From positions 16,542-80,541 of the forward strand of contig JAFNIQ010000001.1 of NCBI GenBank assembly GCA_017601395.1: a DNA stretch of 64,000 nucleotides. The letters run 5' to 3'. Source of the stretch: Candidatus Brockarchaeota archaeon. Lineage in GTDB: Archaea > Thermoproteota > EX4484-205 > JAAOZP01. The translations under genes and the position numbers were made by a program. A model generated the notes under the pieces. That model had not been told where the DNA came from. It worked only from the letters and a program-made list of their open reading frames with translations, and did no database searches. Below, piece by piece: positions 11,539 to 64,000 of the stretch; position 1 is the stretch's first letter; every line of letters begins with the position of its first letter.

Positions 11539-11540
11539 AA

Positions 11541-15811: not shown

Positions 15812-15827
15812 AAAAAAATTTATATTT
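15812..15827 (+). promoter_or_regulatory. Putative archaeal BRE/TATA element (aaaaaaatttatattt) about 27-30 nt upstream of the small ORF start at 15854
   Basis: Purine-rich run followed by TTTATATT. The spacing to the ATG is consistent with a leaderless or very short-leader transcript. Confidence 0.35.
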
Positions 15828-15853
15828 GAGCTCAAACATAAAATAAATCCGAA

Positions 15854-25443: not shown

Positions 25444-25446
25444 GGT

Positions 25447-25857: not shown

Positions 25858-25858
25858 T

Positions 25859-31879: not shown

Positions 31880-32802
31880 CTAACCCGGTTATCCCAATAT
31901 GGTTTTTTCAACATAATTGCCTCCATAAACCTCCTTTTTAAATCATCATCGCCGCCGCCTGAACGCATCAACCCCACTATGTCTACCAAATTATCGTTTC
32001 TCAACAAGCAGGGCTTCAGCCTCCCGTCGCAAGTAACCCTTAGCTTGTAGCAGTGGGAGCAGAAGTCAGGATTCCCAGTTGGCGAGACTATTTCGACTAG
32101 AACTGTCCTTCCGTTTCTGGGGAGCATGTAGATGGAGCGTTGTCCAGTGTAGTTGACAGTTTTCCCGGCTGATTTTGAGGAGATGGTTTTTTCAACATCC
32201 TTAAGGCTGACGTGAAACTCTTGGAAAACCTTCTCGCCACCCGGAATCGGCTGGAGCTCTATGAGCTGGAGAACAGCCCCAATGGAGCCAGCGTAATCCA
32301 GCATCTCTTCAACATCCTCCTCGTTAACCCCTTTCAGAACAACCATGTTTATCTTAACCGGGTTTAGGCCAGTCTCTAATGCGGCATTTATCCCTTTGAA
32401 AACCCTTGAAACATCCCCACCCCCAGTTATCCGGCTGTACTTTGAAGAATCGAGACTAGGAAGGTTAACGTTAACTCTTGCTAGTCCCGCATCCTTAAGG
32501 TCCCCAGCGTATTCCTCAAGGAGGACACCGTTTGTAACGAGCGAAACCTCGCTGACGAGCGGGGAGATCGCTTTCACCATGTCGACAACGTCTTCTCTAA
32601 CCAATGGTTCCCCACCCGTTATCTTAACAGTTTCAACGCCTGTGCTGCTAGCGACCTCGACGATTTTTCTAACCTCGTTTAGAGTCATGCTTCCCCTAGG
32701 AGGAGGGTTCCATTCCCTGTGGCAGAAGAAGCAATTAAGGTTGCAGTTATCCGTAACAGATATCCTGAGGTTTTTCAAGGGTCTGCCGGCCTGTTGAAAC
32801 AT
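31876..32802 (-). CDS. moaA: GTP 3',8-cyclase MoaA (molybdenum cofactor biosynthesis radical SAM)
   Basis: LRISVTDNCNLNCFFC (CxxxCxxC) near residue 20 and C-terminal auxiliary-cluster Cys (CSHCYKLRVTCDGRLKPC). Length 308 aa. Confidence 0.85.
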   Translation of the reverse strand: MFQQAGRPLKNLRISVTDNCNLNCFFCHREWNPPPRGSMTLNEVRKIVEVASSTGVETVKITGGEPLVREDVVDMVKAISPLVSEVSLVTNGVLLEEYAGDLKDAGLARVNVNLPSLDSSKYSRITGGGDVSRVFKGINAALETGLNPVKINMVVLKGVNEEDVEEMLDYAGSIGAVLQLIELQPIPGGEKVFQEFHVSLKDVEKTISSKSAGKTVNYTGQRSIYMLPRNGRTVLVEIVSPTGNPDFCSHCYKLRVTCDGRLKPCLLRNDNLVDIVGLMRSGGGDDDLKRRFMEAIMLKKPYWDNRVS

Positions 32803-38100: not shown

Positions 38101-39638
38101 TGAGAACAGCTAACTTCGCCCCGTTAAACAGGAAGTTGATCGACCTAGTGTCAACCTACATATCTGGCAAGACACTTTATGCTCCGAGGTACTGGGTTTA
38201 TCTTCCTTCCACTCCTGGAGAGGGGACTGCTGGCACAATAGTGATATCCTCTGAGAAAAGCAAGGCTTTGATCTACGCGGCTGTCGGAATAAGCCCTGTA
38301 GAGTTGAAAGCATCTTTCAAGCAGTTTGAAAAAATACTTTTAGAAGGATCCATGTTTAAAGAAGAAGAGGTTTTCTCAGCATTATTGCCGAACAGTCTTG
38401 CGGAAAGCCTGGAGGTGAAGACAGGCGAATATGTCTGGGTTAACGGCTTCCGCTTAACAGTAGCAGGCATACTTAACACGACTGCAATTCTAGCATATGT
38501 GAAGGATTCAGATGGTTTCGTGGACGTCCTGCCCATGGACACGTATATTCTTTCGAACGAGAGAACTCCTCCCCGTGCTGAGGCAGCGTTGAGCCCAGGA
38601 TCCGTAATATTCGTGCCCGCCGGCCTGGTTGAACTGATTCCGGAGGCATGCTTGACAAGCGTTTTCATACCGGCAGACGGGATGGTTTTCGAGGAACTTT
38701 ACGAGAAATGCGGCGAGGTTTTCTCAGCTTTCGAAGGTTTAAACATTTATCTGACGTATAACGGCACTGTATACCGGTTCTCCAAGGAGAACGTTATCTC
38801 GCTATTCGGCTTCCAGTTCATTCTAATACCCATGGTGATCGCGGGGCTGATAACTATGTCGACGATTCTAGGCGGAGTCATGGAGAGAATACGGGAGGGC
38901 TACATATATAGCAGTCTAGGCCTAGCACCGGTTCAAGTAGGCTTAATGTTCTTCGGGGAGAACATCATATACGCTATCGTAGGCTCGATGACGGGCTATC
39001 TCGGCGGAATCTCAGCCTCATACTTGACGAGGAAAATAGGCTTGATAAACCTCCCTGTGAACTACACGTCGTCATTCGTCATGATAGCTGTCGGTCTGGT
39101 GATAGTGCTGGTTCTGGCAGCGTCGCTCTACCCGTTCTACAGAGTCTCCGTCACAGTAACCCCGTCTCTAGAGAGGAAGTGGCGTCTCCAGACTAAGCCG
39201 AAGGGAGACTCGTGGGACATACCGATACCTTTCCGTATAAAGGAGGATGATAGGGCTGCAGGAATGGCTGTTTTCCTCCATGAGTATCTCTGGAACAAGA
39301 GGATAGAGAGGGCAGGAGTCTTCTCCATTGAAAACGTTGAGGTCAGCAAGATAGAGTCTGGAATTAGTGTTAAGTCAAGAGTATGGCTGGCGCCATTCGA
39401 GCAGAACATAAAGCAGGATATGAACATAGTGATATTGAAGAGCAAGACGGAGCAGAATTTCCTTATTTTAATGAATCTAACCAGGGTGTCCGGACCCTAC
39501 GACTCATGGGTCAGGTTCAACTATCCCTTTATTGATGAGATAAGGAAGCAGATGCTGATATGGAACGTTCTCAATCCAGAGGAGCGGGAGAAATACATAC
39601 GTATGGCTAGGGATCGTAGCCTGGTAGGTGAGAAATAA
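35121..39638 (+). CDS. Giant membrane protein (1505 aa): signal/anchor, M28-peptidase-like (possibly non-catalytic) ectodomain, large beta-rich middle region, and an FtsX-like permease module (TM plus extracytoplasmic domain plus 3 TM)
   Basis: M28-like blocks (NVIGEMKGVEDPSKVIIITVNYDSGS…GADEAIGISVMLEF). An FtsX-type N-terminal TM (LKKRKFRTVLTMLCIVIISFSLS). FtsX C-terminal helices (…VIAGLITMSTILGGVMERIREGYIYSSLGLAPVQVGLMFFGENIIYAIVG…). Confidence 0.7.
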   Translation: MIVVRRKHLLVIVFLMMLVAPLIVIQGNREAVEEKTWLNQEAPLVSADRIRDYVALFSSIQSRFTGYPGSLEAAQIIMDKFNESGLKVSLFEYTVLVPYDSGSYMKVGGRMIKAYGLYPNVVATGLKKASGRLVYAGHGTPEELRGLNVNGNIVLLEFNSGSAWVDMVKLGASGIVFLEDGDTNRFEALRKISSVPLDTPRIYVVGQEASQLREIARNNPDAELFNGMEWREVEAVNVIGEMKGVEDPSKVIIITVNYDSGSIVPGIAPGADEAIGISVMLEFIRSLKQQGLSPRYTVLFIAMSGHWQALAGARSFVEQFYFNNSAIGREVFPYLVIDIKISSGSPHLNLVYSGMMYSINTQYIASRFRDLRIFFANSIKSFINSFPSYGKKVLTSNLYPGLYGIAYDSASPGFQKGLAFKHILEMEPFELANSIGLGIITFDDFRYRVFTPSDRLDFIDFQNVIPQAQLTFQILFDLLNAPVEEWYPGSWEGLRPLRMGETYTGVGFTVLKVEVVEYDPTTPGLYSPVSNAFVTVGSTLDQFTLMFSKSDSSGFAVFRGLRPYPEATTALQTPIQSYVIDEEGRIIYAPDRGQHGAGTYPSSVTIVSPEQFTRNVVFKCGSAVMFDLTDPDTLQAAVSPSSMFGTTNAYSAQLRNYGGYETPLTISVMVMQIPGYSILDSFGYEFDPILSVAQVYAPPRIRFGFVVKSTSMAKTVAVYTNVTLQNQDGYGYYLGKEGDRLLVKGGIPGMFMEMLTLAYGRYLAQADIQVLDPKTMENLNYAIMFNQTLLQTASKKDYSGFLTSALMAWGFSSKAYQSSLSVVRDAVTSIILVFALAIPFILLFSSLVYNLSSGFRSVALTLAVALSVALLLTVFHPGFGLAVNVPAIFIGTLIVALVIPVMFFLFSNFSTGLSRLRREVLGAHFLERSGFDVSFSAVSIGIGNLKKRKFRTVLTMLCIVIISFSLSSLTSVTEIRALRVTPTPTEVTCNGVLLRTANFAPLNRKLIDLVSTYISGKTLYAPRYWVYLPSTPGEGTAGTIVISSEKSKALIYAAVGISPVELKASFKQFEKILLEGSMFKEEEVFSALLPNSLAESLEVKTGEYVWVNGFRLTVAGILNTTAILAYVKDSDGFVDVLPMDTYILSNERTPPRAEAALSPGSVIFVPAGLVELIPEACLTSVFIPADGMVFEELYEKCGEVFSAFEGLNIYLTYNGTVYRFSKENVISLFGFQFILIPMVIAGLITMSTILGGVMERIREGYIYSSLGLAPVQVGLMFFGENIIYAIVGSMTGYLGGISASYLTRKIGLINLPVNYTSSFVMIAVGLVIVLVLAASLYPFYRVSVTVTPSLERKWRLQTKPKGDSWDIPIPFRIKEDDRAAGMAVFLHEYLWNKRIERAGVFSIENVEVSKIESGISVKSRVWLAPFEQNIKQDMNIVILKSKTEQNFLILMNLTRVSGPYDSWVRFNYPFIDEIRKQMLIWNVLNPEEREKYIRMARDRSLVGEK

Positions 39639-41557
39639 TGGAAGAGGCTGCACGTGAAAAAGAAGCCTTCATCCCCGGGCTGACAATCGTATCGGTCTCC
39701 GCAGTATTGTTCGGGCTTGTGGTAATCGTGCCCGCAATAATCTATTTAGGCTGGGCTGTCGGCTCTTTAGGTGGAACCGAGAGGTTCATCCCGGTTTTCG
39801 TCACAATCCTCCTATTCACCGAGGCGGGGAGGCTCGTTAAGAGGTATATAACATCGCAAGAGGCTTACATAATATACTTCATGCTTCAAGCCATAGCCCT
39901 ATGGTTCGTCGGCGGAGGAATGTTCGGCGACTTCCTTATAAGGTATTACTACAGGTCCGCCCCTTACACTATCCTATATGGTATAGCTGAAAAGCTTCCC
40001 ACATGGTATGTCCCTGAGCTCGGGAGCTACGGCCCACTCCACAGGACTTTCCTCTCCCCAGACTGGGTGATTCCAATATCGATTTCTCTAGCTGTTAACG
40101 TTTGCGTGCTGATGATAGATTACGGTGTTTCTTTCATAACAAACATGCTCTACATAGAGATAGAGAAGCTCCCGTTCCCCGTCGCACCCATAGACTACCA
40201 GGCGATTTCAACCCTTACTGAGAGAACACCTGAGAAAATAATGTACTTCTCTTTCGCCGCTGTGATAAGCTTCATCTACGAGTTCGCCATCTACGGGATT
40301 CCAAACATAACCTCGATTTTCCTAGGCAGGGCTATAACCGTCATACCGTATCCCTGGGTGGACTTAACCACGGGGATTGAAAGAATCCTGCCGGGAGCAG
40401 TTTTTGCAGTCGGAACCGATATTGCTCAATACATGGTGGGCTGGCTTATCCCGTTTAACGCCGCGGTATGGATGTTCATCGGGTCGGTGGCAGTCTGGGT
40501 TTTCGGAAACTCTATAGCGCTCAGGATTGACCATCCCTACTTCAGCATGTGGCAGAGAGAATGGACTTACGGCGCGTCAATCCAATGGTGGTGGCAGAGA
40601 GCAATCTACGACCTGTGGGCAAGTCCACAAGTAGGTTTAACACTCGGGATCGCGCTTGGAATACTTGCTGTAGGAGCCAAAAACATTGCGCGAGCAATCC
40701 TCTCCCTCAGACATCTTTCGGCAGAGCAGCTTAAAACATCATACTTGCCTTTCAGCTGGATAGTTGCTTTAATCGCCGCCGGGTCTATAGGCGGGTTGCT
40801 TGTTTCAGTCTCCCTTGCCCCAGAACTATGGTTCGTCTGGGTGGTGACCTGGACGATAGTTCCGTTTATTCAAGGTATTCTGACAGCCAGGGCTACTGCT
40901 GAAACCGGGTTATCTGTCACCATACCCTACATTAGGGAAGCGTTCTTCGTTTCTTTCACAAGGCCTGGAGACGTGGTCCCGTGGGTGGTTCCGACGCATG
41001 TGACAAGCAGCGCCGGGATAATTACGCACAGGGTCTACGTGGCTAAGCTCCTGAAAGTCAGGCCCCTAGACTACTACAAGGCCTACCTCATATTCTTCAT
41101 AGTGGCTATTCTCCTATCCCTGCTGTACGTTTCAATATTCTGGGCGATGACGCCCATACCTTCTGCCTTCTACCCGTACGCCAGCTACTCCTGGCCTATT
41201 TCAGCCCTCTACTTCTCCCTATGGGTCTCTAGGTCGATCGAGATTTTCAAGGTGGACGTGATAGCTATCTCAAGCGTCTTATCCTTCATAATGGTCGTCG
41301 TCTCCTCCCGTTTCCCAACGCAATACTTCTCCCCAATAGGCTTCCTATACGGTTTTCAAAACATTCCCGCTTACACGCTTCCACCATTGATCGGAGCCCT
41401 GATCGGAAAATGGCTTGAGAGGAGAATGGGTAAGGATAAATGGGTTGTGCGGAGAGGAGTGATAATCGCCGGAACATTCTGCGGGATCGCGCTTGCAGTA
41501 GCAGCCGCTGTCGCCATCACTATAATGGGGAGAGCGATAACAGCTAAACCATTCTAA
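39638..41557 (+). CDS. Hypothetical giant polytopic membrane protein (639 aa), paralogue B. The start overlaps the upstream stop (TAATG).
   Basis: About 14 TM helices. It shares an E-K-L-P-F-P-V-A-P-I motif and overall architecture with the protein at 32859..34964. Confidence 0.6.
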   Translation: MEEAAREKEAFIPGLTIVSVSAVLFGLVVIVPAIIYLGWAVGSLGGTERFIPVFVTILLFTEAGRLVKRYITSQEAYIIYFMLQAIALWFVGGGMFGDFLIRYYYRSAPYTILYGIAEKLPTWYVPELGSYGPLHRTFLSPDWVIPISISLAVNVCVLMIDYGVSFITNMLYIEIEKLPFPVAPIDYQAISTLTERTPEKIMYFSFAAVISFIYEFAIYGIPNITSIFLGRAITVIPYPWVDLTTGIERILPGAVFAVGTDIAQYMVGWLIPFNAAVWMFIGSVAVWVFGNSIALRIDHPYFSMWQREWTYGASIQWWWQRAIYDLWASPQVGLTLGIALGILAVGAKNIARAILSLRHLSAEQLKTSYLPFSWIVALIAAGSIGGLLVSVSLAPELWFVWVVTWTIVPFIQGILTARATAETGLSVTIPYIREAFFVSFTRPGDVVPWVVPTHVTSSAGIITHRVYVAKLLKVRPLDYYKAYLIFFIVAILLSLLYVSIFWAMTPIPSAFYPYASYSWPISALYFSLWVSRSIEIFKVDVIAISSVLSFIMVVVSSRFPTQYFSPIGFLYGFQNIPAYTLPPLIGALIGKWLERRMGKDKWVVRRGVIIAGTFCGIALAVAAAVAITIMGRAITAKPF

Positions 41558-41571
41558 GTTAGCCTCTGTGC

Positions 41572-42660
41572 TTATTTCCTTTTTAGCGCGCCTATCTCGG
41601 AAGTATAGAGAATTAGTCGGTCTACCTCCGTGCTCCATCCAAGCTCCCTGGTGTGGTTCGGATCCACCGCCTCAACCCATATTAGCCACCTGTCGCCCCT
41701 TATCCTGTCGAATAAGGCTTGAGCATAAGTGTGAATCGGGTACTCGCCGTGTTCGAAACGTGAAAGCGGTGTCCAAACTTTTTCGAAAATGGTTTCTAAA
41801 TTAAGCCTTCCTAAATCAATACTGTAGGCGACAAAATGTTTGGTAAGCGCGTTCCCCCTTATCACATCCAGCGTTTTCGTGCCGATGAAAATCAGACCCG
41901 TTGAGCCTGGGATTATTGAGCCGCTCAGCAGGAAGAAGTCCGGTTGACTCTTACCGTCAACAGTAGGCACTCCAAGCTTAACCCAGTTCTTCCCATCGCT
42001 ACCGACAGCCAACGCCGTCTTCACGATGCTTGTGCCCGCCCTCCTAGCCTTGTAGAGGCAGAAGTATCTGCCATCAACTATGTCTATAGTAGCGTCTCTC
42101 GATTCTCCGCTGTCGTATTCCTCGCTTCCTCTGATTACGAAGCCTTCAGGCTCCCATGGGCCGGAAGGATCTTCCGAAGTCAGTAGAAAGGTTTCCCACC
42201 TGCTCTCCGTGAAAGCCTCTCCCTCGACAACCAAGTTCTCCCTTGAAACATTCAGCGAAAGATAAAGATGGTATCTCCCACTCAAGGGGTCTTTTAAAAG
42301 CTGCTGGTTCTCAATGCTTAGAATCTGGTTTTTCGTCATCTCGCTCAACTCCTCCTTAGTGATCCATGTTACCAGATCATAATTCTCACCATCCTTCGAC
42401 CTGTATATTTCAACAGCGTACCCCCTCCTCATCTCCTTCATCTCTCTCGGCCTACTCGTCAACCAGTATTCACTATTCTCCTCATCGATCCACATTTTTC
42501 CAGCGCCGCACCAAGAGCCGGGGTTGAAATTGGGAGGGTCGAGGAGCACCTTCATAAACCTTCTTTTGGAGAAGATGGCTTGAGGTGGGTATAGGCCACA
42601 CCAGCTCATAACAACGTTGAGAAAAGAAATGTTATTTAAGGCTTTCGCCATTGTTTTCAC
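41572..42660 (-). CDS. Hypothetical protein, possibly a beta-propeller glycosidase-like fold (GH43/GH32/GH130-type?). The start may be the internal Met (MKVLLDPP…).
   Basis: ORF of 362 aa with no TM. Repeated beta-strand-rich segments. It sits among glycoside hydrolase genes. No firm family motif was recognised. Confidence 0.35.
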   Translation of the reverse strand: MKTMAKALNNISFLNVVMSWCGLYPPQAIFSKRRFMKVLLDPPNFNPGSWCGAGKMWIDEENSEYWLTSRPREMKEMRRGYAVEIYRSKDGENYDLVTWITKEELSEMTKNQILSIENQQLLKDPLSGRYHLYLSLNVSRENLVVEGEAFTESRWETFLLTSEDPSGPWEPEGFVIRGSEEYDSGESRDATIDIVDGRYFCLYKARRAGTSIVKTALAVGSDGKNWVKLGVPTVDGKSQPDFFLLSGSIIPGSTGLIFIGTKTLDVIRGNALTKHFVAYSIDLGRLNLETIFEKVWTPLSRFEHGEYPIHTYAQALFDRIRGDRWLIWVEAVDPNHTRELGWSTEVDRLILYTSEIGALKRK

Positions 42661-47363: not shown

Positions 47364-48461
47364 TTATGTATATGCTCCGTATTTTCTGATCAGCTTTATG
47401 TATTCTTGAAATGCGCTGAAAGAAACATCAGGCGGCACACTGTGGTCTGAACATGCTATGTATCCCCCGCCCTTTTTTGCGGCGGGTATCTTGCGGGATA
47501 TTTCAACCTCAATCTCCATGGGGTTGCCAATCTTCCTCGCATCGAGGTTTCCGATGAAGGAAAGGGTCTTCCCATATTTCTCTTTCAGCTCGACAACGTC
47601 CATTCCCGCCTTAACTTCCATCGGCTGTAAGGCCGTGAAACCAGCTTCGATCAATTTGGGGATCAACAGGTTCACGTTGCCGTCAGTATGCAATATGGTC
47701 GGCATATTCCTCACCCTATAGGCAGAGGTCATTTGAGCATGCGCCGGCTTCACGAACTCGTCGTAAACCTTCGGGGAGAAGAACGGCCCCTTGTTGTAAC
47801 CTATATCATCCCAAACCCACAGTCCGTCAACTCCTAGCTTAAGATAGGTTTCCACGATCCTTGAGAAATACTGGCCCAAATGTCTGAAAATATACTTAAC
47901 GAGGCCCGGATCCCTGTGGATCGCGACCAACACCTTGTCCACGCTTTCCCCAAGTATATGTCTAGTTGCTTCAAAAGGACCTATTATCGAGCAGAATACG
48001 GCGTAACGCTCCTTCAACCTCCTTATGCCTTCCTCAAGCTCCCTCTTAAACGGGTATTTGCTGCTTGAAACCCTGATTGGCAGCTCAGGGTCTAATAGGG
48101 GCTCAAGCTTCTCTTTAAAATCCTCAATCGTCGAGACCGATGGTGGTCCAGCAGGATGAGGCGTACCGCTCCTACCGATCCAAGCCTTCACCCTCACGCC
48201 CCAGGAATCTATGTATGTTCTAAACTTATCATTCTCCTCGAGTATGATGGTGTCGTACTTAGGACTTACATCCGGACCTATTAGGTAGATATCGTAGCCA
48301 AAATAATCATGTAAGGAGACTCCTCTAGGCAGGCCCTCGCTATACCATCTCTCAAGGGTTTCGCCCCATGGGAAATCTATGAAGGGAACCCTGTCTGCCT
48401 CCTCGTGGTTTAACACTCTTAACACCCGTTCTCTCGAATCCATGTTTTTCAAAAATCCCAC
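47364..48461 (-). CDS. Uroporphyrinogen decarboxylase family protein (URO-D / MtaA-CmuA-like methyltransferase fold), intact
   Basis: N-terminal SRERVLRVLNHEEADRVP motif, TIM-barrel-length 365 aa, C-terminal …GGGYIACSDHSVPPDV… block. Confidence 0.7.
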   Translation of the reverse strand: MGFLKNMDSRERVLRVLNHEEADRVPFIDFPWGETLERWYSEGLPRGVSLHDYFGYDIYLIGPDVSPKYDTIILEENDKFRTYIDSWGVRVKAWIGRSGTPHPAGPPSVSTIEDFKEKLEPLLDPELPIRVSSSKYPFKRELEEGIRRLKERYAVFCSIIGPFEATRHILGESVDKVLVAIHRDPGLVKYIFRHLGQYFSRIVETYLKLGVDGLWVWDDIGYNKGPFFSPKVYDEFVKPAHAQMTSAYRVRNMPTILHTDGNVNLLIPKLIEAGFTALQPMEVKAGMDVVELKEKYGKTLSFIGNLDARKIGNPMEIEVEISRKIPAAKKGGGYIACSDHSVPPDVSFSAFQEYIKLIRKYGAYT

Positions 48462-53580: not shown

Positions 53581-54987
53581 TTACCTTTCTTCCACGAGTG
53601 TTAACTCTCCGTCCTTTTTAACCACCACGAATAGCGCTGCCAGAGCTGTGCATGTCGATAGTGCTCCCATGTATCGCGTAAGGCCAGTTAAATCAACTGT
53701 CTGAGACGCTACTTTGAACACGTAGTTGATCGGCTCGCTCTCCACAATCCGGTATAGCTGTCCATATAAGACGATGCTTACTGCCCGCGTTGTCAGGTTT
53801 CCCTCGCCACTCCTCAGGAACCCGTCGGAATCATAGGTTCCAGTAAAATAATGTATAGTCGTATTCACGTTGACAACGCTGACTGTCGACCCCCCTCTCA
53901 CCATTACTGGGAGTCTAATGCTCTTACTGCTTAAAATTATCTGCCTGTTAGAATTGGCTGCATTGTAAAGCAATCCCGCCGTGTTCAACCTGTTTAGCAA
54001 TATTCTCGTAGTGTCCAAAGATACGCTGGCAATCTGAGACTCCAGGTCTGGCAGCTGTATGCCCACGTAGTCAACGTAGGGGGCTCCTTCACACGTATAT
54101 TGAATTGTTGTTGACTTTACAGTGCCTTGAACAGCTAACCCTGAGGAGGCGTAGGCTGCTCCAGCTAAAAGCAGAACCATGAAAACTGTGGTAATGGCTT
54201 TGGAGAAAAAGCCTAGTCCCCTCGTCTTCAGGTTGATAGGCATCAAGTAGGGGAGGAGGCTGTATGCCCGCAGCATTCTAAACATGGCAATCCTCCTTTT
54301 ATCGACAATGAGCGGAAGCAACGCTATTCCCATTACGAATCCCCCTGCGTGAGCAAAAACTGCTGTGCTTCCCGCGGTCTTGGTGAAGCCGTAAATCACC
54401 TGTGTTGCAAACCAGAATATTATGTAGTAGGCGGCCTTGATTCTGAAAAACATTGGGAAGAGTATGAAGCTCCAGCCTACTATGAGATATGTACCCGGGT
54501 AAAATATGAGGTACGCCCCCAGGATTCCGCTGATCGCTCCAGACGCGCCGATTGCAGGAACCGTGTATGCTGAAAAACCACCTAGAAAGCTGAACGCGGT
54601 GTGGAATATGGATGCTGCAACTCCTGCCGTCAAGTATAAAAGTAGGAATCTTAACTTGCCTAGGATGCTTTCAACAGCCCTGCCGAAAACATATAGGAAA
54701 TACATGTTGAAGAGTATGTGGAAGAAATCGGCATGGAGAAACATGGATGTAAAAACCCTATACCACTGGAAGGGGGTTTCTATAAGCGAAGGGATGAAAC
54801 CACCTATGCTCACCCAGTATTCACTGGTCTCTATGAAGAAACTCTCGTAGGAGGTTAAGACGTATGTTAAAACATTAACCATTATTATGATTATTGTAAC
54901 CGTCGGCTTGGTTTTAAAACCAGCTGGACTACCAATCGGTATGCCGAAACTCGTTCTAAATCCGCCGGAAGCCATTTCCCTACTCAT
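53581..54987 (-). CDS. Rhomboid-family intramembrane serine protease fused to an extra TM and a C-terminal extracytoplasmic domain of about 200 aa
   Basis: Catalytic GASGAISG (GxSG) and FAHAGGF His motif, plus an HxxxN-type segment (FLHADFFHILFNM). The C-terminal half is non-rhomboid and soluble-like. Confidence 0.75.
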   Translation of the reverse strand: MSREMASGGFRTSFGIPIGSPAGFKTKPTVTIIIIMVNVLTYVLTSYESFFIETSEYWVSIGGFIPSLIETPFQWYRVFTSMFLHADFFHILFNMYFLYVFGRAVESILGKLRFLLLYLTAGVAASIFHTAFSFLGGFSAYTVPAIGASGAISGILGAYLIFYPGTYLIVGWSFILFPMFFRIKAAYYIIFWFATQVIYGFTKTAGSTAVFAHAGGFVMGIALLPLIVDKRRIAMFRMLRAYSLLPYLMPINLKTRGLGFFSKAITTVFMVLLLAGAAYASSGLAVQGTVKSTTIQYTCEGAPYVDYVGIQLPDLESQIASVSLDTTRILLNRLNTAGLLYNAANSNRQIILSSKSIRLPVMVRGGSTVSVVNVNTTIHYFTGTYDSDGFLRSGEGNLTTRAVSIVLYGQLYRIVESEPINYVFKVASQTVDLTGLTRYMGALSTCTALAALFVVVKKDGELTLVEER

Positions 54988-56257
54988 ACCTCAGTGCATC
55001 GACAGGTTTAAGTTTTGAGGCTTTCCAAGCAGGGTAGAGAGCGAACACCATGGTGACCGTCAGGCCGAAGACGAGGGCTCCAAGTATAACTGTTGGAGTT
55101 AGGACCGGTGTTATCGTGATGCCGTTTGATACTCCAGCCTGGTTTCCCTGCCGTATGATGCCCACTCTATCCGAGGAGCCGAATATCCTTAAAACAATTT
55201 GCGCTAAGCTCCATCCTGCACCGATCCCGATTAAAGTCCCTAGCAAACCTATTATGGCTGCCTCGCACAAGAATATCAGTAGCACCTGGTGGTTCTTCAT
55301 GCCTAAAGCCTTCAGTATGCCTATTTCCCTGGTTCGCTCCATTACAGATACGATCATAATGTTCATTATGCCTATTCCTGCTACAAGAAGCGAGATTGCC
55401 GCGATCCCCGCTAGGAAGAGCTCAACCGTTGAGAATACGCTTGAAATAATGTTTAAGATGGCTGTTGAAGAAGTGACTGATACACGGCCTCCTAAGGCTT
55501 CCTTTATGGCCTTCGCCGCACTGTCGATTGTAGCCCTATCGTCATTCCTCAACTTAACGATTATCATCTCGCAGGTTTCAGTTCCGAAGAAGCTTTGAGC
55601 CTTCGAAATCGGAATATATATCCTGTTGTCTGAGGGGCCACCGATGGTGAATCCCCCGATCTCACGGAGAACAGCCGCAACTCTACCTACATACGTTTCG
55701 TTTCTAAGTGGTCTTGCGGTCGTGTTGGTCCAAAGTATCTCTAACGTGTCGCCAGTCCTGCAGAGAATTGTTCCATTACCCCAAGGGTTGCTCACCTGCT
55801 TTCCTATTACGATAGCATCGTCTTCAGGGTTTAACGGGATTTCCCCCTCCTCGGCTGCGAACGCGCTGCTGTAAATCTCCCTGTAGGCGGCAAAATCGAC
55901 GCCGGTTACCGTTACTCGACGCGTCTGCCCGTTTGGCATTCTTATATAGCATATTCTTTGGATCACTGCTATTGAGGCAGTAACGTTGTCCATCTCTTTT
56001 ATTGTTTGAGCATCCTTAACCAGCAAGTTGAACTCGTTTACGCCACCCAAACCCCCGCCTGCGGTGACGATTAGAGTGTCTGTTGCAAAACCTCTCTGAA
56101 GCTGTGCGGATATTGCTACTTGAAGCCCCTGAGTTATTGAAAGCAGTGCCACTATTGCGGCTATTCCAATGACTACGCCTAGCGTCGTTAAACCTGCTCT
56201 GAGTTTACGCAGCTTTATCGCGCTGAAAGCATATGAAAACACGTCTATTATCCTCAT
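54980..56257 (-). CDS. ABC transporter permease, FtsX/MacB-type (N-terminal TM, periplasmic-type core domain, 3 C-terminal TM)
   Basis: N-terminal TM (LTTLGVVIGIAAIVALLSI), an extracytoplasmic domain of about 230 aa, and FtsX helices (…GIGIMNIMIVSVMERTREIGILKALG…). Confidence 0.75.
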   Translation of the reverse strand: MRIIDVFSYAFSAIKLRKLRAGLTTLGVVIGIAAIVALLSITQGLQVAISAQLQRGFATDTLIVTAGGGLGGVNEFNLLVKDAQTIKEMDNVTASIAVIQRICYIRMPNGQTRRVTVTGVDFAAYREIYSSAFAAEEGEIPLNPEDDAIVIGKQVSNPWGNGTILCRTGDTLEILWTNTTARPLRNETYVGRVAAVLREIGGFTIGGPSDNRIYIPISKAQSFFGTETCEMIIVKLRNDDRATIDSAAKAIKEALGGRVSVTSSTAILNIISSVFSTVELFLAGIAAISLLVAGIGIMNIMIVSVMERTREIGILKALGMKNHQVLLIFLCEAAIIGLLGTLIGIGAGWSLAQIVLRIFGSSDRVGIIRQGNQAGVSNGITITPVLTPTVILGALVFGLTVTMVFALYPAWKASKLKPVDALRYE

Positions 56258-56258
56258 T

Positions 56259-56945
56259 TCAATTCACCGTCTCCCTGACAATCATGCCGTCAAGCATGTA
56301 CACTATTCTCTTAGCTTCCGTAGCCAGCTGCTGATCATGGGTAACCATTATTATTGTTACACCCTTATCCTCGTTAAGCCTTTTTACGAGCCTTATTATT
56401 TCGTAAGCGTTTTTAGAATCTATGTTTCCAGTGGGTTCATCCATAAGCAAGAATCTCGGGTTGTTGGCTAGGGCTCTGGCAATCGCGACGCGTTGCTGCT
56501 CACCCCCGCTGAGCTCCGTCGGCTTATGATTCATCCTGCTTGCTAAACCAACCATTTGCAAGAGTTCCTCAGCCCGTTTTCTCCTCTCGCCCTTGCTTAA
56601 GCCGGCTATCGACATGGGTAGTTCAACGTTCTCCCTTGCTGTGAACCTTGGAATAAGGTTGAAGAATTGGAAGACAAACCCTATTTTCATCCTTAAATCC
56701 GCAAGCTGGTTATCGTTCAGGGCTGACACATCAATGTTTTCGATGAAAAGCTTTCCCCCCGTAGGCTTGTCTAAAGCTCCTATCAGGTTTAGAAGAGTCG
56801 ACTTTCCGCTTCCCGAGGGCCCTAGTACTGAGAGAAACTCGCCCTCCTTCACTTCAAGGTTTACTTCCCGAAGAGCCTCAACAGGAATCTTGCCCTGCAT
56901 GTAGGTTTTCCTAAGATCAACAGTTTTAATGATGGTCTTAGCCAT
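56259..56945 (-). CDS. ABC transporter ATP-binding protein (MacB/LolD-type)
   Basis: Walker [13 protein letters not shown], signature [15 protein letters not shown], Walker [11 protein letters not shown] 1-nt gap to the FtsX-type permease gene. Confidence 0.85.
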
Positions 56946-56960
56946 TTCTCCAACACCATC

Positions 56961-57920
56961 CTACTTAGACAGGTATCTCCAGGAAAGCACTATTCCTATT
57001 GAAGAAAGCACGGTGGCGAAGAAACCTAGGTACATAAAGTCAGTGATAAGCTTAGAAACGTCTAAAGTCAGGATTGTCAACTGTCTTAAAGCGTCTGTCA
57101 GATAGCTAAGCGGGTTTACATAAGCCACTGCCTGCAACCAGTCCGGCATTAAAGTGATTGGTAATAAGGTGTTGCTTGCAAACATCAGCGGCATAGTGAT
57201 TAAGCTTATGAATTGCATTGGCCTCTCCAACTTAGTTGATCTTAAAGAGAATGCTAGGAAAACCGATGAAAGCCCTACGCTGAGTAGGAATATTGCAGCG
57301 TAAACCCCAAATATGTTAATCAGGGTGAAGCTTGGGCTCAACTGCAACCCTAGTACTGTTGCGAGAGTCAGGATTATCGTGGCCTGAAGCATCGCTCTTA
57401 AAGTCGCGTTAAGAACCTTCGAAAAGATTATGGCCCCGCGGGGCACAGGCGTGCTCAAAACTTTATCTAGGAACCCTAGACGCCTATCCCAAACTATAGA
57501 CATTCCGCTGAACATAGTCGTGGTCATAACTATCATTGAAATCATGCCGATGGACATGTAGCTGAAGTAATCCGTTACTCCGAAAACATTCCTCATAACG
57601 TTAGCACCAATATCTGAAACCGTCTGCTGGATTATCTGGGAAACCATTGTGCCGCTAACATATATCACTCCGTTAGCCGGAGGAATCACGTAGTTTCCCG
57701 GTATCGGAATTTTCTCCGGAACCTCTATGTTGCCCAGGTTGCTTGCTGAGAACATTGCACCCAGGTTCATCGACTTCCCTAGAAGCCCCATCCAGATTAA
57801 AGGCTGGATTACGAGCATTAGAAGCATTATGGGGTCGTTTAACCATTTTTTAAGCTCCCTGACCGTTAAAGCCCACAGGCCACGGAGAAGGCTCGGATGA
57901 TACTCGTTCACTCTGCTCAT
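56961..57920 (-). CDS. ABC-2 type transporter permease
   Basis: Six TM helices. A 4-nt overlap with the upstream ATPase gene. Confidence 0.65.
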   Translation of the reverse strand: MSRVNEYHPSLLRGLWALTVRELKKWLNDPIMLLMLVIQPLIWMGLLGKSMNLGAMFSASNLGNIEVPEKIPIPGNYVIPPANGVIYVSGTMVSQIIQQTVSDIGANVMRNVFGVTDYFSYMSIGMISMIVMTTTMFSGMSIVWDRRLGFLDKVLSTPVPRGAIIFSKVLNATLRAMLQATIILTLATVLGLQLSPSFTLINIFGVYAAIFLLSVGLSSVFLAFSLRSTKLERPMQFISLITMPLMFASNTLLPITLMPDWLQAVAYVNPLSYLTDALRQLTILTLDVSKLITDFMYLGFFATVLSSIGIVLSWRYLSK

Positions 57921-58921
57921 CTTGCCCTCGCCCTCCTGATGGTAATCCTCTGGCTTCGAAAAGCCTCTTTAGACTCCTCCGTGTCTCGCATAGACCTGCC
58001 GGTGTATTCTAGGTAAACCTCGTTTAAAGTTGGTTCTGTAAGCGAAAGCCTGGTCACAGTATAGCCGTTCCTTCTGAGAGCCTCGATTATCAGAGGAGCA
58101 GTTTCCTCCCCCGACTCCACCTTAATCCTGTAGGAACCGTTTTCGTTTCTAACCTCCTTAACGTTTTCAACGCTCCGGATTATGCTACTGATGTCAACAT
58201 CCTCCTTTATGCTTATCGTTATGATGTCGCCGCCTAAACTATGCTTCAATTCTTCAGGGTCTCCAGTTACGATGATTTTCCCGTAGTCGATTATTGCTAT
58301 ACGGTCGCACAGGGTGTCAGCCTCCTCCAAGTAGTGCGTCGTCATGAAAATAGTCATGTCATATTCCTCTTTCAAACGTTTAATGTAGTTCCATGTTGCA
58401 GCCCTAGTTTGGACGTCTAAACCTAGCGTTGGCTCGTCTAGGAAAAGAACCCTCGGCCGGTTTATCAGGCCACTTGCAAGCTCGAGTCTTCGCCTCATCC
58501 CTCCGGAATAGGTTTCAACCTTCTTATCTTTGAAGCTGGTGAGTTCAACGAGCTCCAGCAGCTCAACAGCCCTCTTCTTCGAGACTTCTCGTGGAATGCC
58601 GTAGAGGTCTGCACATAGAATGATGTTCTCGTAGCCTGTTAAATCCTCGTCTGCCGTGTACTCTTGTGGAACAACGCCTATAACCTTCCTAACCTCGTTA
58701 GCCTGCTTCACAACGTCGTATCCTAGAATTGAGGCTGTACCTTCTGTCGGCCTTAAAACAGTTATCAGCATATTTATGGTGGTTGTCTTACCGGCGCCAT
58801 TAGGACCGAGGAAACCGAAGATTTCACCGTGTTTAACGCTGAAGCTCACATGGTCGACTGCAACCAGATTCTTGTTGAAAACCTTAGTAAGGCCTCTAGC
58901 AACTATGACTTCCTCAGACAC
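57917..58921 (-). CDS. ABC transporter ATP-binding protein (DrrA-like)
   Basis: Walker A GPNGAGKTTTIN, signature YSGGMRRRLELA, Walker B LFLDEPTLG. Confidence 0.85.
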   Translation of the reverse strand: MSEEVIVARGLTKVFNKNLVAVDHVSFSVKHGEIFGFLGPNGAGKTTTINMLITVLRPTEGTASILGYDVVKQANEVRKVIGVVPQEYTADEDLTGYENIILCADLYGIPREVSKKRAVELLELVELTSFKDKKVETYSGGMRRRLELASGLINRPRVLFLDEPTLGLDVQTRAATWNYIKRLKEEYDMTIFMTTHYLEEADTLCDRIAIIDYGKIIVTGDPEELKHSLGGDIITISIKEDVDISSIIRSVENVKEVRNENGSYRIKVESGEETAPLIIEALRRNGYTVTRLSLTEPTLNEVYLEYTGRSMRDTEESKEAFRSQRITIRRARAR

Positions 58922-58928
58922 TCTGAAT

Positions 58929-59465
58929 CTACCCCCTAATCCTCTTGTTTAACTCTTCTATTTTTCCTGCAGCTTCCTCAAGCACCCTGCCTACTTCTGC
59001 AAGATCCTCTTCAGTCGCCCTGCCTCTTGAAAGAATCATGAATTCCCTGAAGGCGGCGAAAAGACGTTTAATAGGATCATGAAGCCCCCCAAGTCTATCC
59101 TCTGGAAACCTGCCGACGAAAGGAGGCGGTGGAAGTAGGAGAGGGAAGGAAACCATTCTTTCGACAAGCCTTTCCCTTATCTTACCCTTCTCCTCAAGGA
59201 GTTTTCTACCCTTGTCAGTCAACTCGTAGCGTTTAACCCCTGTCTCATCCCTTGGAAGAGCCTTTATGAATCCTTTTTCATGCAGCCATGTGAGCAGGGG
59301 GTAGATTGAGCCTGGGCTCGGTCTCCAAGCCCCGTGGCTTTCCTCCTCAATCCTATCCATTATTTCAGAGCCGGACATGGGCTTCTCACTCAGCTTTTCT
59401 AGAACCAAGTATCTTAGAAGACCCTTTGGCGCGTAAGCCATGTGCCTCATCCAGTGCCTAAACAT
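58929..59465 (-). CDS. PadR-family transcriptional regulator
   Basis: Winged-HTH block …GSEIMDRIEEESHGAWRPSPGSIYPLLTWLHEKGFIKA… typical of PadR. It is the first gene of the 8-gene minus-strand operon. Confidence 0.75.
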   Translation of the reverse strand: MFRHWMRHMAYAPKGLLRYLVLEKLSEKPMSGSEIMDRIEEESHGAWRPSPGSIYPLLTWLHEKGFIKALPRDETGVKRYELTDKGRKLLEEKGKIRERLVERMVSFPLLLPPPPFVGRFPEDRLGGLHDPIKRLFAAFREFMILSRGRATEEDLAEVGRVLEEAAGKIEELNKRIRG

Positions 59466-59571
59466 GTCGCTGTCGATATCGATAACGATATATAAACTTT
59501 ACTGTTTTTTCCAAATTTCTTACGAGTAGGCTCACGCTAAAGATATAAACCCTTAAAAACAAATAGTCGCC

Positions 59572-60834
59572 ATGCTCGTTAAGATACCTTTCGGAAAGGG
59601 CTTTGAAGAGTGCGAGGTTGAGGATTCCAGGATCCATGCTTATCTCGAGCCGTCTTGGCCCACGCCTGGTAACCCTGATTTTTTCATTGAAAACGCTTTA
59701 TCAAATCCAATAGGGTCTAAAAGCCTTGATGAGCTCGCCGAGAAGGCGGGCAGAATACTAATTATTACTAGTGATAACACTAGGCCCGTTCCGAGTAAAA
59801 CTACTCTTCCAAGGCTTATCGCAAAAATGAAGAAGGCGTCACCACAGGCTTCTATACGGCTGCTGGTGGCTACCGGGCTACACGAATGGTCTCCCAGTGG
59901 AAGCGAGTTGAAAGAGAAGTTCGGTCAGGCGCTGGACTATTTAGATGAGTTTATTATTCACTCGGCTAAAAACATTGGTTCGCTGGTTAACCTTGGATCG
60001 TTGTCAACCGGCAACAGGCTTTACGTAAACACTCTTTTAAAAGAGGCTGACCTAGTGGTTTCCGAGGGATATATTGAGGGCCACTTTTTCGCAGGCTTCA
60101 CCGGGGGGCCGAAGAGTATTCTCCCCGGCGTTTCAGGGGTTGAGACTATAATGAACAATCACTCTCCGGGAAACATTGATCACCCGAACGCCAGGTGCGG
60201 TGTTGCTGAGGGAAACCCTATATACGAGGAGATGCTGGAGGCAGCAAACATGGCAAAACTCCGCTTCATTCTGAACGTCGTGTTAGACGGTAGGAAGCGG
60301 ATGCTTTCAGCCTTCGCAGGAGACCCGCTTGAAGCACATAGAAGTGGCCGTGTCTTCACTTTAAAATACTGTGGTGTGAAACCAGTCCCAGGCGATATAG
60401 TAATAACTTCAAACGGCGGTTATCCTTTAGACCGAAACCTCTACCAGCTTGTTAAAGGTATTTCAAACGGTGCCCTGACGGCTAGGGAGGACGGTGTAAT
60501 CGTGGCGTGCGGCGAATGCGTAGACGGGGTTGGGCACCAAGGGTTCTACGAGATGCTTGCCTCCTCAAGCAGCCCAGGCGAGTTTCTAAGGAGACTTAGG
60601 TCTGGAGAAATATGGAGGGAGGCACAATGGGAGGCCCAGGTTTTGGCGAGAGTCTTAGAGAAGTTTCGCGTGATAGTTGTCTCAAGAGGCGTGGATTCGA
60701 AAACAGTTGAATCCATGCATATGATGCATGCGAAAAGCCTGAAAGAGGGTTTGGAAATCGCTCTTAGCCTCAAGCCTCTGGGCAGGATAACTCTTCTCCC
60801 CGACGGCCCTTCTACAATACCTCTTCCGCAATAA
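59572..60834 (+). CDS. larA: LarA-like nickel-pincer-cofactor-dependent lactate racemase family protein (DUF2088)
   Basis: …EGHFFAGFTGGPKSILPG… (the Lys that tethers the cofactor) and …NNHSPGNIDHPNARCGVAEGNPIYEEM… (second catalytic His region). Length 420 aa. Confidence 0.7.
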   Translation: MLVKIPFGKGFEECEVEDSRIHAYLEPSWPTPGNPDFFIENALSNPIGSKSLDELAEKAGRILIITSDNTRPVPSKTTLPRLIAKMKKASPQASIRLLVATGLHEWSPSGSELKEKFGQALDYLDEFIIHSAKNIGSLVNLGSLSTGNRLYVNTLLKEADLVVSEGYIEGHFFAGFTGGPKSILPGVSGVETIMNNHSPGNIDHPNARCGVAEGNPIYEEMLEAANMAKLRFILNVVLDGRKRMLSAFAGDPLEAHRSGRVFTLKYCGVKPVPGDIVITSNGGYPLDRNLYQLVKGISNGALTAREDGVIVACGECVDGVGHQGFYEMLASSSSPGEFLRRLRSGEIWREAQWEAQVLARVLEKFRVIVVSRGVDSKTVESMHMMHAKSLKEGLEIALSLKPLGRITLLPDGPSTIPLPQ

Positions 60835-60875: not shown

Positions 60876-61499
60876 TTACCATCTGGTGAATTCAACCGTC
60901 TTATCTCTCTTAGGCGGGATGCCGGATGTGTGCACAAGATACCGGATCTGAGAGGAAGCCTCAATCATACAGGTGACGTGGTAAGCCTCTTCCAAGAGCT
61001 TAGCCGCGGCGAATGTTCCGTGACCCCTCACCACAACCCCCTTATAGTGTTTAAGCGCCTCCGAAACCTTTTCCTCAAGCTCCTTGGAGCCGCTCACCTC
61101 TTTGACAACAAGCACAGGTATTTTTCTAAGCACGTAGTCTCCCTCGGCATCCATCGGAATTATCTCGTCAAAGATCAGTGAGCAGACTATCGAGTAGGGT
61201 GGGTGAGCATGTACAACGGCCAGTGCTGAAGTATTAAGATATACGGCCCTGTGAACCATGGTTTCAGAAGAGCTTAATAGTATTGAACTATCCTCCTCGA
61301 AAAGGTCTACTTCAACAACGTCCTCCGGCCCTATCTCGTCGGCAGCCGCGCCCCTCCTTTTAATATACATCTTATTGCCAACCCTAACGCTTATGTTTCC
61401 GCTATGGCTAACCATGTAGCCTTTATCGAAAAGCTTCTTGCCATACTTGCTTATCTCCTTCCAAACCTCGCTTACACCACTAGGGTTCAATCCTCTCAA
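60876..61499 (-). CDS. Class II aldolase/adducin-family protein (L-fuculose-/L-ribulose-5-phosphate aldolase/epimerase-like)
   Basis: The MVSHSGNISVRV N-terminal motif and a His-rich metal site (…VVHAHPPYS…). Length 207 aa. Confidence 0.75.
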   Translation of the reverse strand: MRGLNPSGVSEVWKEISKYGKKLFDKGYMVSHSGNISVRVGNKMYIKRRGAAADEIGPEDVVEVDLFEEDSSILLSSSETMVHRAVYLNTSALAVVHAHPPYSIVCSLIFDEIIPMDAEGDYVLRKIPVLVVKEVSGSKELEEKVSEALKHYKGVVVRGHGTFAAAKLLEEAYHVTCMIEASSQIRYLVHTSGIPPKRDKTVEFTRW

Positions 61500-62199: not shown

Positions 62200-62604
62200 T
62201 CAAACATTTCTTTTAGAATATGCTTCGAGTAAGCGATATGTAAAAGACCAGAAAGAAGGAAGCAAGAAAAATGCCCATATTAGTGCAATCACATAAGGCA
62301 TAGGCCATACGAGTCGATCAGTAAAATAGAGGTACTGAGAATAAATCACCAGTAAAACGCATAGGAACATGAATAAGAAGGAAAATGACAATATGATTCT
62401 GTTTTTAAAGTTAAACTGTTCTATACATACTCCAAAGAAATACGCTATAGCGAAACTAAAAGCTGACCCAAAGAAAAGCAAGCTCGCAAATGTTTGATCC
62501 AAGAAATAAAGCATTATGGTTATTGCCAAGTATAGAAAAATAAATCCCATAGACAAAACCGATATTCTGAATTTTATTGAAAAATATTTATTTCTTCGCA
62601 TCAT
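62200..62604 (-). CDS. Hypothetical small membrane protein (4 TM) in an AT-rich patch
   Basis: ORF of 134 aa with four hydrophobic helices. The local GC is clearly below the window average. Confidence 0.35.
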   Translation of the reverse strand: MMRRNKYFSIKFRISVLSMGFIFLYLAITIMLYFLDQTFASLLFFGSAFSFAIAYFFGVCIEQFNFKNRIILSFSFLFMFLCVLLVIYSQYLYFTDRLVWPMPYVIALIWAFFLLPSFWSFTYRLLEAYSKRNV

Positions 62605-62811
62605 CTCACCCTCACTAATGGTTTCACGCTCCCCAACTCCTAGGGATATTGGACATAGCTAGTATTTATTTTTTCTATTATGAATATAAAATAATCGTAT
62701 ACGTTGCATGTGGAAACTCATCCATTTTTGAAAAGAAGCTATCACTTCGGCTTCCCAGAAGCAAGCTTGTTGCCTTTATAAACATTATCTTCGAGTTTAA
62801 TCCCCTCTGCT

Positions 62812-64000
62812 CTAACTATCCAGGCCCAATTTCTCAAGCGTTCTCTTGGCTGGGCGTCCCTCGTCATCCCATCCTCTAGCCCTATAGTATTCATCCAACA
62901 TTTGATCTAATTCAACAACCTGGCCCTTAGTCGGTCCGATGGCCAGTGGCTCGCTCAGCAACCTTTTCGGAAGAGTATCATCCTTCCTACCGAATCCTTC
63001 TCTCAGGTTGAAGAGTTTCTCGAGATTCCATATTCTCTCGCCTATGAGCATGAGGTCTTCAGCCGTATATTTTACGCCGGTTGCAGCTGAAAGCATCCTT
63101 GAGTAGTATTCTTCGTCAAGCCCGTATCCTGTGAACCTGCAGGCTACTAGCGTATCCATGGCTGCGTAAAGGTTCTGCTGGTATATTACTAGGCCGGCCT
63201 TGTTGACTGTTGAAAACCTGTCTATCCTCTTCGGAACCCCAAGTATTTCCAAGCCTATCATGTACGACCTTAGGTGGCAGCCTCCCCTGTTGCTTGTGGC
63301 ATATGCTAACCCCTGTCCCTTCGCCCCCCGGGGGTCGTAGGCGGGCAGCTCCAAGCCTTTAACATGCATAGCTGCATCTGGATCCCCGTATTTCTCAGCG
63401 AGCCTACGCGAGCCCTCTGCAAGATCGTTTCCGAAACCCTTCCTGTAAGCGGTTTTCTCAATCAGCTCCATGATTTTATCCCCATCGCCCCACTTTACTT
63501 CCTCAGGCGTCAAGCCTTTTTCGCTAAGCTCCATCGCGCAGGCTATCGTAACGCCTGTTGAAATAGTGTCCAACCCTAGGTCGTTGCACAAATTGTTTGC
63601 CCTCCAAATGGTCTCGAGGTCCCAAAGCAGGCAGCAGGAGCCCAGTGAGAAGACTGTCTCATACTCCGGCCCCTCGCCCTCAGCACTGTCTAGACGAGTC
63701 CTCCTGCCGCACGATATCCCGCATCCGAAGCATGCCTTAGGTTTAACCAGCAGCCTCCTGGTTATCTCCTCTCCAGCAATATTCCTTGCCTCAGGCATGA
63801 AAGTTGCTTGGAAGTTTTTAGCCGGCAGCACGCCAAGCTCGTTCATAAGGTTTACTAAAACAGCCGTCCCAAACCTGGGTAGGGCTTTACTCGTGATAGG
63901 GTTCTGGCCGAAAACCCTGTTGCATTCTCTGACTATGAAGAGAAAATTCTCCTTGTCAGCGATTTCAACTGTCTTACTTCCTTTTGCGACGATTGCTTTC
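62812..64000 (-). CDS. aor: Tungsten-containing aldehyde:ferredoxin oxidoreductase (AOR family), 5'-partial; the N-terminal domain continues beyond the window end
   Basis: Domain 2/3 blocks (…CFGCGISCGRRTRL…, …GLCHLRSYMIG…-like segments). The minus-strand reading frame stays open past the first Met to position 64000 (…KAIVAKGSKTVEIADKENFLFIVRECNRVFGQNPITSKALPRFGTAVLVNLMNELGVLPAKNF). Confidence 0.8.
   Translation of the reverse strand, partial: KAIVAKGSKTVEIADKENFLFIVRECNRVFGQNPITSKALPRFGTAVLVNLMNELGVLPAKNFQATFMPEARNIAGEEITRRLLVKPKACFGCGISCGRRTRLDSAEGEGPEYETVFSLGSCCLLWDLETIWRANNLCNDLGLDTISTGVTIACAMELSEKGLTPEEVKWGDGDKIMELIEKTAYRKGFGNDLAEGSRRLAEKYGDPDAAMHVKGLELPAYDPRGAKGQGLAYATSNRGGCHLRSYMIGLEILGVPKRIDRFSTVNKAGLVIYQQNLYAAMDTLVACRFTGYGLDEEYYSRMLSAATGVKYTAEDLMLIGERIWNLEKLFNLREGFGRKDDTLPKRLLSEPLAIGPTKGQVVELDQMLDEYYRARGWDDEGRPAKRTLEKLGLDS

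Follow-up and report, generated by a model that had tools for sequence, protein, structure and literature searches.

The window analysed here is a stretch of 64,000 nucleotides (nt) of DNA from Candidatus Brockarchaeota archaeon (assembly GCA_017601395.1, contig JAFNIQ010000001.1, positions 16,542 to 80,541 of the forward strand), and all positions given below are counted from its first letter. It encodes a homologue of the racemase LarA, which is the subject of this analysis:

59572 to 60834, plus strand: larA, lactate racemase dependent on the nickel-pincer nucleotide (NPN), assigned from Pfam, NCBIfam and PDB matches, signature residues and the NCBI name.

The larA open reading frame (ORF) begins with ATG and specifies a product of 420 amino acids, whose translation carries the motifs HFFAGFTGGPKS and MNNHSPGNIDHPNARCG together with MNNHSPGNIDHP. 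Pfam resolves the two-domain architecture of LarA, with Lar_N (PF09861) spanning residues 7-209 (8.5e-52) and LarA_C (PF21113) spanning residues 269-415 (2.3e-41). Of the NCBIfam models, NF033504, the equivalog for lactate racemase, clearly outscores all others, with 454.3 bits against a curated cut-off of 460. The closest match in the PDB is the LarA of Thermoanaerobacterium (2yjg_A; E=4e-104, 352 bits), which aligns over its residues 4-422 with residues 3-416 of the window protein, followed by the lactate racemase of L. plantarum (5huq_A; E=4e-92, 312 bits). Broad-spectrum LarA (3e-59, 204 bits) and the malate racemase Mar2 (7e-55, 190 bits) match more weakly. These full-length matches in Pfam, NCBIfam and the PDB bear out the membership of the LarA family that had been proposed for this gene in an earlier reading of the DNA (the original prediction).

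The identical protein is present in GenBank under the name 'MAG: nickel-dependent lactate racemase [Candidatus Brockarchaeota archaeon]' (MAG, metagenome-assembled genome; GCA_017601305.1, contig JAFNIR010000026.1), so the gene has already been recognised for what it is. It is also found, again identical, in two Logan assemblies of hot-spring runs. A relative at 90% identity, JAWCCC01, is placed by GTDB in the Thermoproteota, class EX4484-205, genus JAAOZP01, and the LarA of the species representative, CALIBN01, is 98% identical. By its sequence, the gene at 59572-60834 is a full-length, intact and conserved larA, an uncharacterised member of a known family.

To assess the active site, we compared the protein with the LarA of L. 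plantarum, for which 20 signature positions have been described (PMC7583248). Fourteen of these, namely those for catalysis, cofactor binding and the lactate pocket, were compared via alignment, and the window protein and 28 relatives agree with L. plantarum LarA at all 14. More specifically, the NPN-binding residues are kept as K181 (the tethering Lys184 of L. plantarum), H197 (the nickel ligand His200) and R71 (Arg75), and the catalytic residues as D68, H104, H171 and K295 (Asp72, His108, His174 and Lys298). The substrate pocket is of the hydrophobic lactate type and is made up of F172, F173, I217, Y291, Q292, V294 and W353 (F175, F176, I220, Y294, Q295, V297 and W358). Across 117 homologues, comprising 25 clade members and 92 others, these fourteen positions are essentially invariant. 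The cofactor-tethering lysine and the histidine named in the original prediction are thus both in place, as K181 and H197, in the residue alignment. The remaining six of the 20 signature positions differ in the window LarA from the published signature. Two further substitutions, H73N and R183P in L. plantarum numbering (N69 and P180 here), are invariant in the clade (25/25), while among the homologues outside the archaeal LarA clade H73N occurs in 4/92 and R183P in 13/92.

The gene is under purifying selection, with a ratio of nonsynonymous to synonymous substitution (dN/dS) of 0.10 against an orthologue of 90% identity. Furthermore, 158 alignment columns are invariant over 16 clade members that range from 62 to 100% identity. 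A non-catalytic DUF2088 protein, which the original prediction had named as the contrary case, finds no support, given that the catalytic and cofactor-binding residues do not vary within the clade and that dN/dS is 0.10.

By homology, the window LarA is therefore predicted to be a nickel-pincer-dependent racemase with a lactate-type pocket that works by proton-coupled hydride transfer. The NPN cofactor would be held by Lys181, His197 and Arg71, and His104 and His171 would take turns in accepting and returning the hydroxyl proton. The hydride would pass from C2 of lactate to C4 of the pyridinium and then back onto the pyruvate intermediate, and the outcome of catalysis would be the interconversion of L- and D-lactate.

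Members of the LarA superfamily differ widely in specificity (PMC7583248, PMC11770544), and for this reason we weighed an NPN-dependent racemase or epimerase whose substrate would not be lactate but, for example, malate, 2-hydroxyglutarate, a sugar acid or some aromatic or short-chain 2-hydroxyacid. Such a substrate would be compatible with a score for NF033504 slightly under its cut-off, with the clade-specific changes near the active site, and with the sugar-acid-type genes found beside larA in a lineage at 70% identity (KduI, an FGGY kinase and a glyoxylate-reductase-like dehydrogenase). The pocket itself points to lactate: the residues equivalent to F175, F176, I220, V297 and W358 are identical to those of lactate racemase, and the hallmarks of other specificities (Y or K for F175/F176, K for W358) are not found in the window protein. 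The models for other specificities, scored with the groups NF052593, NF052595 and NF052525, remain far under their cut-offs, with 328.8 bits versus 500 for the malate racemase family LarAH6, 280 versus 462 for a further LarAH model and 243 versus 540 for LarAH10. The nearest structures are likewise lactate racemases, well ahead in bits of the broad-spectrum and malate enzymes. We consider a different substrate unlikely, and retain lactate racemase as the preferred assignment.

Upstream of larA lie its putative core promoter and a divergent operon:

59541 to 59549, plus strand: TATA-box-like core promoter element of larA with the sequence agatataaa, at a conserved fixed distance from the gene; its promoter role is suggested by archaeal promoter geometry.

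58929 to 59465, minus strand: PadR-family regulator (Pfam PadR, 3.5e-17) heading an ATP-binding cassette (ABC) operon.

57917 to 58921, 56961 to 57920, 56259 to 56945 and 54980 to 56257, all minus strand: tightly packed ABC ATPase and permease genes after PadR.

The 3' end of the agatataaa element lies 22 nt from the larA ATG and its centre about 27 nt, in agreement with the TATA-like box placed about 28 nt upstream in the original prediction. Of 11 orthologous lineages, 10 carry A(A/G)ATATAAA or a close variant equally far from the ATG, with diverged flanks. Since the position is kept while the flanking sequence has diverged, the element is more than a chance AT-rich word, and from where it lies, the larA mRNA should have no leader or a very short one. 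It is retained even in a lineage where a gene with an MG2 domain replaces PadR upstream. Such conservation in nearly all lineages (10 of 11), the one with the inserted gene among them, agrees with an independent larA promoter and with leaderless transcription. We therefore expect that larA would be transcribed alone from its own TATA element, leaderless or nearly so, and outside the PadR/ABC operon.

The original prediction was also accurate on the layout of this region, in that a PadR-headed ABC operon of packed ATPase and permease genes occupies the minus strand and is separated from larA by a divergent intergenic region of 106 nt (59466-59571, between the PadR ATG at 59465 on the minus strand and the larA ATG at 59572). 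PadR has a TATA-like sequence of its own, tttatata, which is the reverse complement of 59489-59496. The two genes are read from opposite strands and have separate TATA boxes about 45 nt apart. A perfect palindrome of 10 bp, tcgatatcga, is located at 59473-59482, between the PadR TATA and the PadR ATG, and is a plausible candidate for a PadR autoregulatory operator.

This arrangement raises the possibility that LarA is coupled to the PadR/ABC operon and that PadR controls both promoters, for instance where export of a compound is tied to 2-hydroxyacid metabolism. Six of eight related species share with the window the divergent pair and its 106-nt spacer, and the palindrome lies within that spacer. 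Its placement on the PadR side, about 60 nt from the LarA TATA, argues against control of larA, and where a PadR regulator heads an ABC exporter operon, its usual target is that same operon. Moreover, PadR/ABC accompanies LarA only in lineages with at least 83% LarA identity. In the L006/L007 lineage, a gene of 772-792 amino acids with an MG2 domain is inserted between PadR and LarA, and the LarA core promoter is unchanged. In the lineages at 68-70% identity (L004, L104, L105) PadR/ABC is absent, yet the aldolase and oxidoreductase genes described below are kept. We regard a functional or regulatory coupling as distinctly improbable. The PadR adjacency is lineage-specific, and larA is a separate unit from the PadR/ABC operon.

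The original prediction had emphasised that the genes for making the cofactor are missing near larA. To search for them in the window, all 51 long ORFs were scanned with Pfam, LarB, LarC1, LarC2 and LarE from the annotated L. plantarum plasmid operon served as tblastn queries, and profile hidden Markov models for LarB, LarC and LarE, each from four divergent sources (one being P0200, a bacterium with a larE-larB-larC operon), were run on six-frame ORFs of at least 50 amino acids. With all three approaches, LarB and LarC gave no match in the 64 kb. LarE was not found in the window either, as the sole match to its profile is the PP-loop subunit of GMP synthase:

1779 to 2720, minus strand: PP-loop ATPase, GMP synthase subunit B, with a GMP_synt_C domain and 45 bits to the LarE profile.

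This gene was considered as LarE and rejected: because it carries GMP_synt_C and scores 45 bits where true LarEs exceed 400, it is assigned to GMP synthase subunit B.

The same three genes are absent from the 10 kb to the left of the window and about 10 kb to its right, from ±10 kb around the larA orthologue in eight GTDB species representatives, and from positions adjacent to LarA orthologues or paralogues on the long contigs of the relatives P0013 (1.38 Mb), P0002 (858 kb), P0036 and P0031. For an archaeal route to LarE, the Methanococcus maripaludis protein was rebuilt from the PDB 8cnz alignment and led to a Methanomethyliaceae LarE (P0154), which was used for a second search. No LarE named as Brockarchaeota occurs among the best 120 of more than 7,800 matches to the P0154 query, nor among the best 120 of the first search; because only the best 120 of more than 7,800 matches are covered, this absence says little. 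No archaeal records were found for LarC in plasmids, and a LarC-profile scan of metagenome contigs returned at least 80 loci, the best scorers against a bacterial query, which are uninformative for this lineage. The Brockarchaeota paper and its 18 supplements contain no mention of lactate, racemase or the lar KEGG numbers.

We infer that larB, larC and larE lie elsewhere in the genome. This expectation follows from the strict conservation of the cofactor-binding residues, from the scattering of lar genes in another Thermoproteota genome, whose LarE has neither LarB nor LarC beside it, and from a survey in which 2,108 of 11,067 LarC loci have LarB and LarE without LarA within 20 ORFs (PMC13524815). 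An unlinked larA is common for the family and is no anomaly. The statement in the original prediction that LarB, LarC and LarE are not encoded nearby is thus correct for the window by Pfam, tblastn and profile models alike, while the significance attached to the missing neighbours was overstated.

The opposite case would be a genome without NPN biosynthesis, in which LarA is a cofactor-less relic or non-catalytic protein, or uses a cofactor that is scavenged or made differently. It could account for the lack of LarB, LarC and LarE in the ~84 kb around larA and near its orthologues, and for the lack of a Brockarchaeota-named protein among the best 120 matches of each LarE search. That second absence is weakly informative given the more than 7,800 matches, and Lar biosynthesis genes are often scattered. 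Strong purifying selection and the invariance of cofactor-binding and catalytic residues in the clade argue against a relic, as does a second LarA clade that is also kept in Brockarchaeota. We judge this explanation very unlikely. The related idea that the lineage keeps a selected LarA while lacking LarB, LarC and LarE genome-wide, with the cofactor supplied by community members or by an unknown route, deserves equally little credence. A functional LarA with its biosynthesis genes at other loci remains the preferred explanation.

Downstream, larA is followed by two genes on the opposite strand:

60876 to 61499, minus strand: FucA-like class II aldolase, convergent with larA (Pfam Aldolase_II, 2.2e-34; NF006413, 230.8 bits versus a cut-off of 203).

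62812 to 64000, minus strand: C-terminal part of an aldehyde:ferredoxin oxidoreductase (AFOR); its frame is open to the end of the window, where the gene runs off.

The best PDB match of the aldolase is fuculose-1-phosphate aldolase (2fk5, 2e-27). It adjoins larA in every relative with an available flank, down to 68% LarA identity. The AFOR is likewise kept beside the aldolase in relatives, with an identity of 76-96% to their AFOR, and the full-length orthologue in L001, L004 and L006 has AFOR_N and AFOR_C domains. The order LarA, class II aldolase, AFOR is kept in all eight GTDB species representatives and in other relatives wherever the flank exists, again down to 68% LarA identity. The conserved neighbours of larA are therefore those of the downstream aldolase/AFOR side and not of the PadR/ABC side. 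The lineage at 70% identity has KduI, an FGGY kinase and a 2-hydroxyacid dehydrogenase in this neighbourhood.

At a distance from larA, the window encodes a proposed consumer of D-lactate:

10744 to 13906, plus strand: etfB-etfA-lctD-like cluster for a FAD lactate dehydrogenase of the Ldh-EtfAB type, with the domains ETF, ETF + ETF_alpha and FAD_binding_4 + FAD-oxidase_C.

The best solved relative of the LctD-like oxidase is LctD of A. woodii (7qh2_C, 2.3e-84), and the cluster represents an archaeal version of the electron-confurcating Ldh-EtfAB arrangement that acetogens have. It stands directly after a gene for a GH106-like alpha-L-rhamnosidase of 999 amino acids (a weak match), the two together covering 7639-13906 on the plus strand.

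From these neighbours, a pathway can be proposed in which LarA would link the formation and the oxidation of lactate. From a deoxy-ketose phosphate, the FucA-like aldolase would split off L-lactaldehyde, which the neighbouring AFOR would oxidise to L-lactate. LarA would then convert L-lactate to D-lactate, which an LctD/EtfAB-type dehydrogenase would oxidise to pyruvate. The part of LarA as the supplier of D-lactate to LctD/EtfAB is suggested by analogy with bacterial lct clusters (PMC8914356). Taken as a whole, we consider it probable that the gene encodes a functional LarA lactate racemase with its own promoter, with larBCE located elsewhere and with a role in a lactaldehyde-lactate pathway.

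Several findings weigh against this explanation. At the level of the enzyme, the NF033504 score falls 6 bits under the curated cut-off of 460, and the clade-invariant H73N and R183P flank the cofactor-binding residues R75 and K184. Neither the window with its flanks (~84 kb together) nor the surroundings of any orthologue yielded LarB, LarC or LarE. At the level of the pathway, the evidence is confined to gene neighbourhood: larA and the aldolase/AFOR genes converge and are not co-transcribed, 46 kb separate larA from etfB-etfA-lctD, and we identified neither an isomerase nor a kinase for rhamnose or fucose in the 64 kb. In addition, the FGGY kinase and the dehydrogenase of the 70% lineage score best as xylulokinase and glyoxylate reductase, so a glycolaldehyde route would fit better there than a lactaldehyde route.

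A number of further observations concern the surroundings of these genes. The order rhamnosidase-etfB-etfA-lctD also occurs in a Logan contig (L097). Just past lctD, an ORF of 85 amino acids (14052-14309, plus strand) contains only the C-terminal half of a Glyoxalase/VOC domain (profile positions 76-121 of 121) and could represent a fragment of a gene or an ORF whose start was mis-called. The window is identical to L001 (GCA_017601305.1, contig JAFNIR010000026.1) through larA and the aldolase and then departs from it, through an indel or divergence in the spacer ahead of the AFOR gene (~62500-62680), so it stems from an assembly or strain that is very close to this one but distinct. About 4-7 kb past the right end of the window, L001 encodes at 15698-18901 a DhnA-type class I aldolase, a fusion of a DhnA-type aldolase with a 2x[4Fe-4S] ferredoxin and then a second AFOR. 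The result is a second pair of aldolase and AFOR beside the first one, with an unusual aldolase-ferredoxin fusion. Genes for the molybdopterin/tungstopterin cofactor lie at 24491-26098 and 31876-32802, both on the minus strand, and encode MoaB/Mog-like, MoaC and MoaE proteins, a ThiS/MoaD-like carrier and MoaA; these Moa-type genes fit the several AFOR enzymes in and just past the window.

The second LarA clade was seen in a Brockarchaeota MAG (GCA_017601265.1; L008, 10001-15813). Its protein is 51% identical to the window LarA, has the same signature residues and is encoded beside a cluster for a membrane-bound [NiFe] hydrogenase and the maturation protease HycI. At least two lineages of LarA, each in a different context, are thus kept in Brockarchaeota.

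Elsewhere in the window, an ORF of 1505 amino acids (35121-39638, plus strand) shows only two domains, peptidase M28 close to its N-terminus and an FtsX-like permease at about residues 1230-1340, and the ORFs 39638-41557 and 41572-42660 have no Pfam match. Three radical-SAM genes and one gene of the URO-D/MtaA-like methyltransferase family are located at 16009-17340, 28780-30369, 30746-31879 and 47364-48461. More URO-D genes lie just past the window, and the URO-D/MtaA-like genes may relate to the methylotrophy proposed for Brockarchaeota.

The larA gene alone matters little, being a conserved archaeal orthologue of a well-understood enzyme that is already correctly named in GenBank. The added value lies in the context, with a racemase beside a FucA-like aldolase and an AFOR across an archaeal class and an Etf-dependent LctD-type dehydrogenase in the region. 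This context suggests a ferredoxin-linked route in uncultured hot-spring archaea, from deoxy-sugar-derived lactaldehyde via L- and D-lactate to pyruvate. If true, it would make a small addition to archaeal sugar catabolism and offer a thermophilic lactate racemase for study.

Among the characterised enzymes, the LarA of Thermoanaerobacterium thermosaccharolyticum (PDB 2YJG) and that of Lactiplantibacillus plantarum (PDB 5HUQ/6C1W) share their two-domain architecture and length with the window protein and align with it over the full length (4e-104 and 4e-92). The L. plantarum protein is 41% identical, with all 14 compared residues conserved. The window gene differs from both in its archaeal host (Brockarchaeota, EX4484-205), in being solitary rather than part of a larABCDE operon, and in the clade-invariant H73N and R183P beside cofactor-binding residues.

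The coexistence of a LarA homologue with a dehydrogenase of the EtfB-EtfA-LctD type is shared with the lct clusters (lctABCDEF) of Acetobacterium woodii and Anaerobutyricum. There, the racemase allows L-lactate to be used by way of the D-specific LctD: in gut bacteria, LctD receives its substrate from the LarA homologue LctF, and strains that lack LctF use D-lactate only (PMC8914356). Unlike in those clusters, the 46 kb between larA and etfB-etfA-lctD preclude membership of one cluster, leaving a possible functional analogy, and the Pfam scans of the window detected neither a lactate permease (PF02652) nor a LutR-type regulator.

Finally, the proposed formation of lactate recalls a route that Grochowski and White are said to have described in Methanocaldococcus jannaschii, where a FucA-type aldolase and a lactaldehyde dehydrogenase reportedly provide lactate from lactaldehyde for F420 biosynthesis. 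Judging from the neighbourhood, both would use a short archaeal FucA-like class II aldolase able to yield L-lactaldehyde, which is then turned into L-lactate. The second step would differ, with a tungsto/molybdopterin AFOR here and an NAD-dependent dehydrogenase in M. jannaschii. The Brockarchaeota version would furthermore have a racemase attached, and its proposed purpose would be catabolic rather than the biosynthesis of F420.

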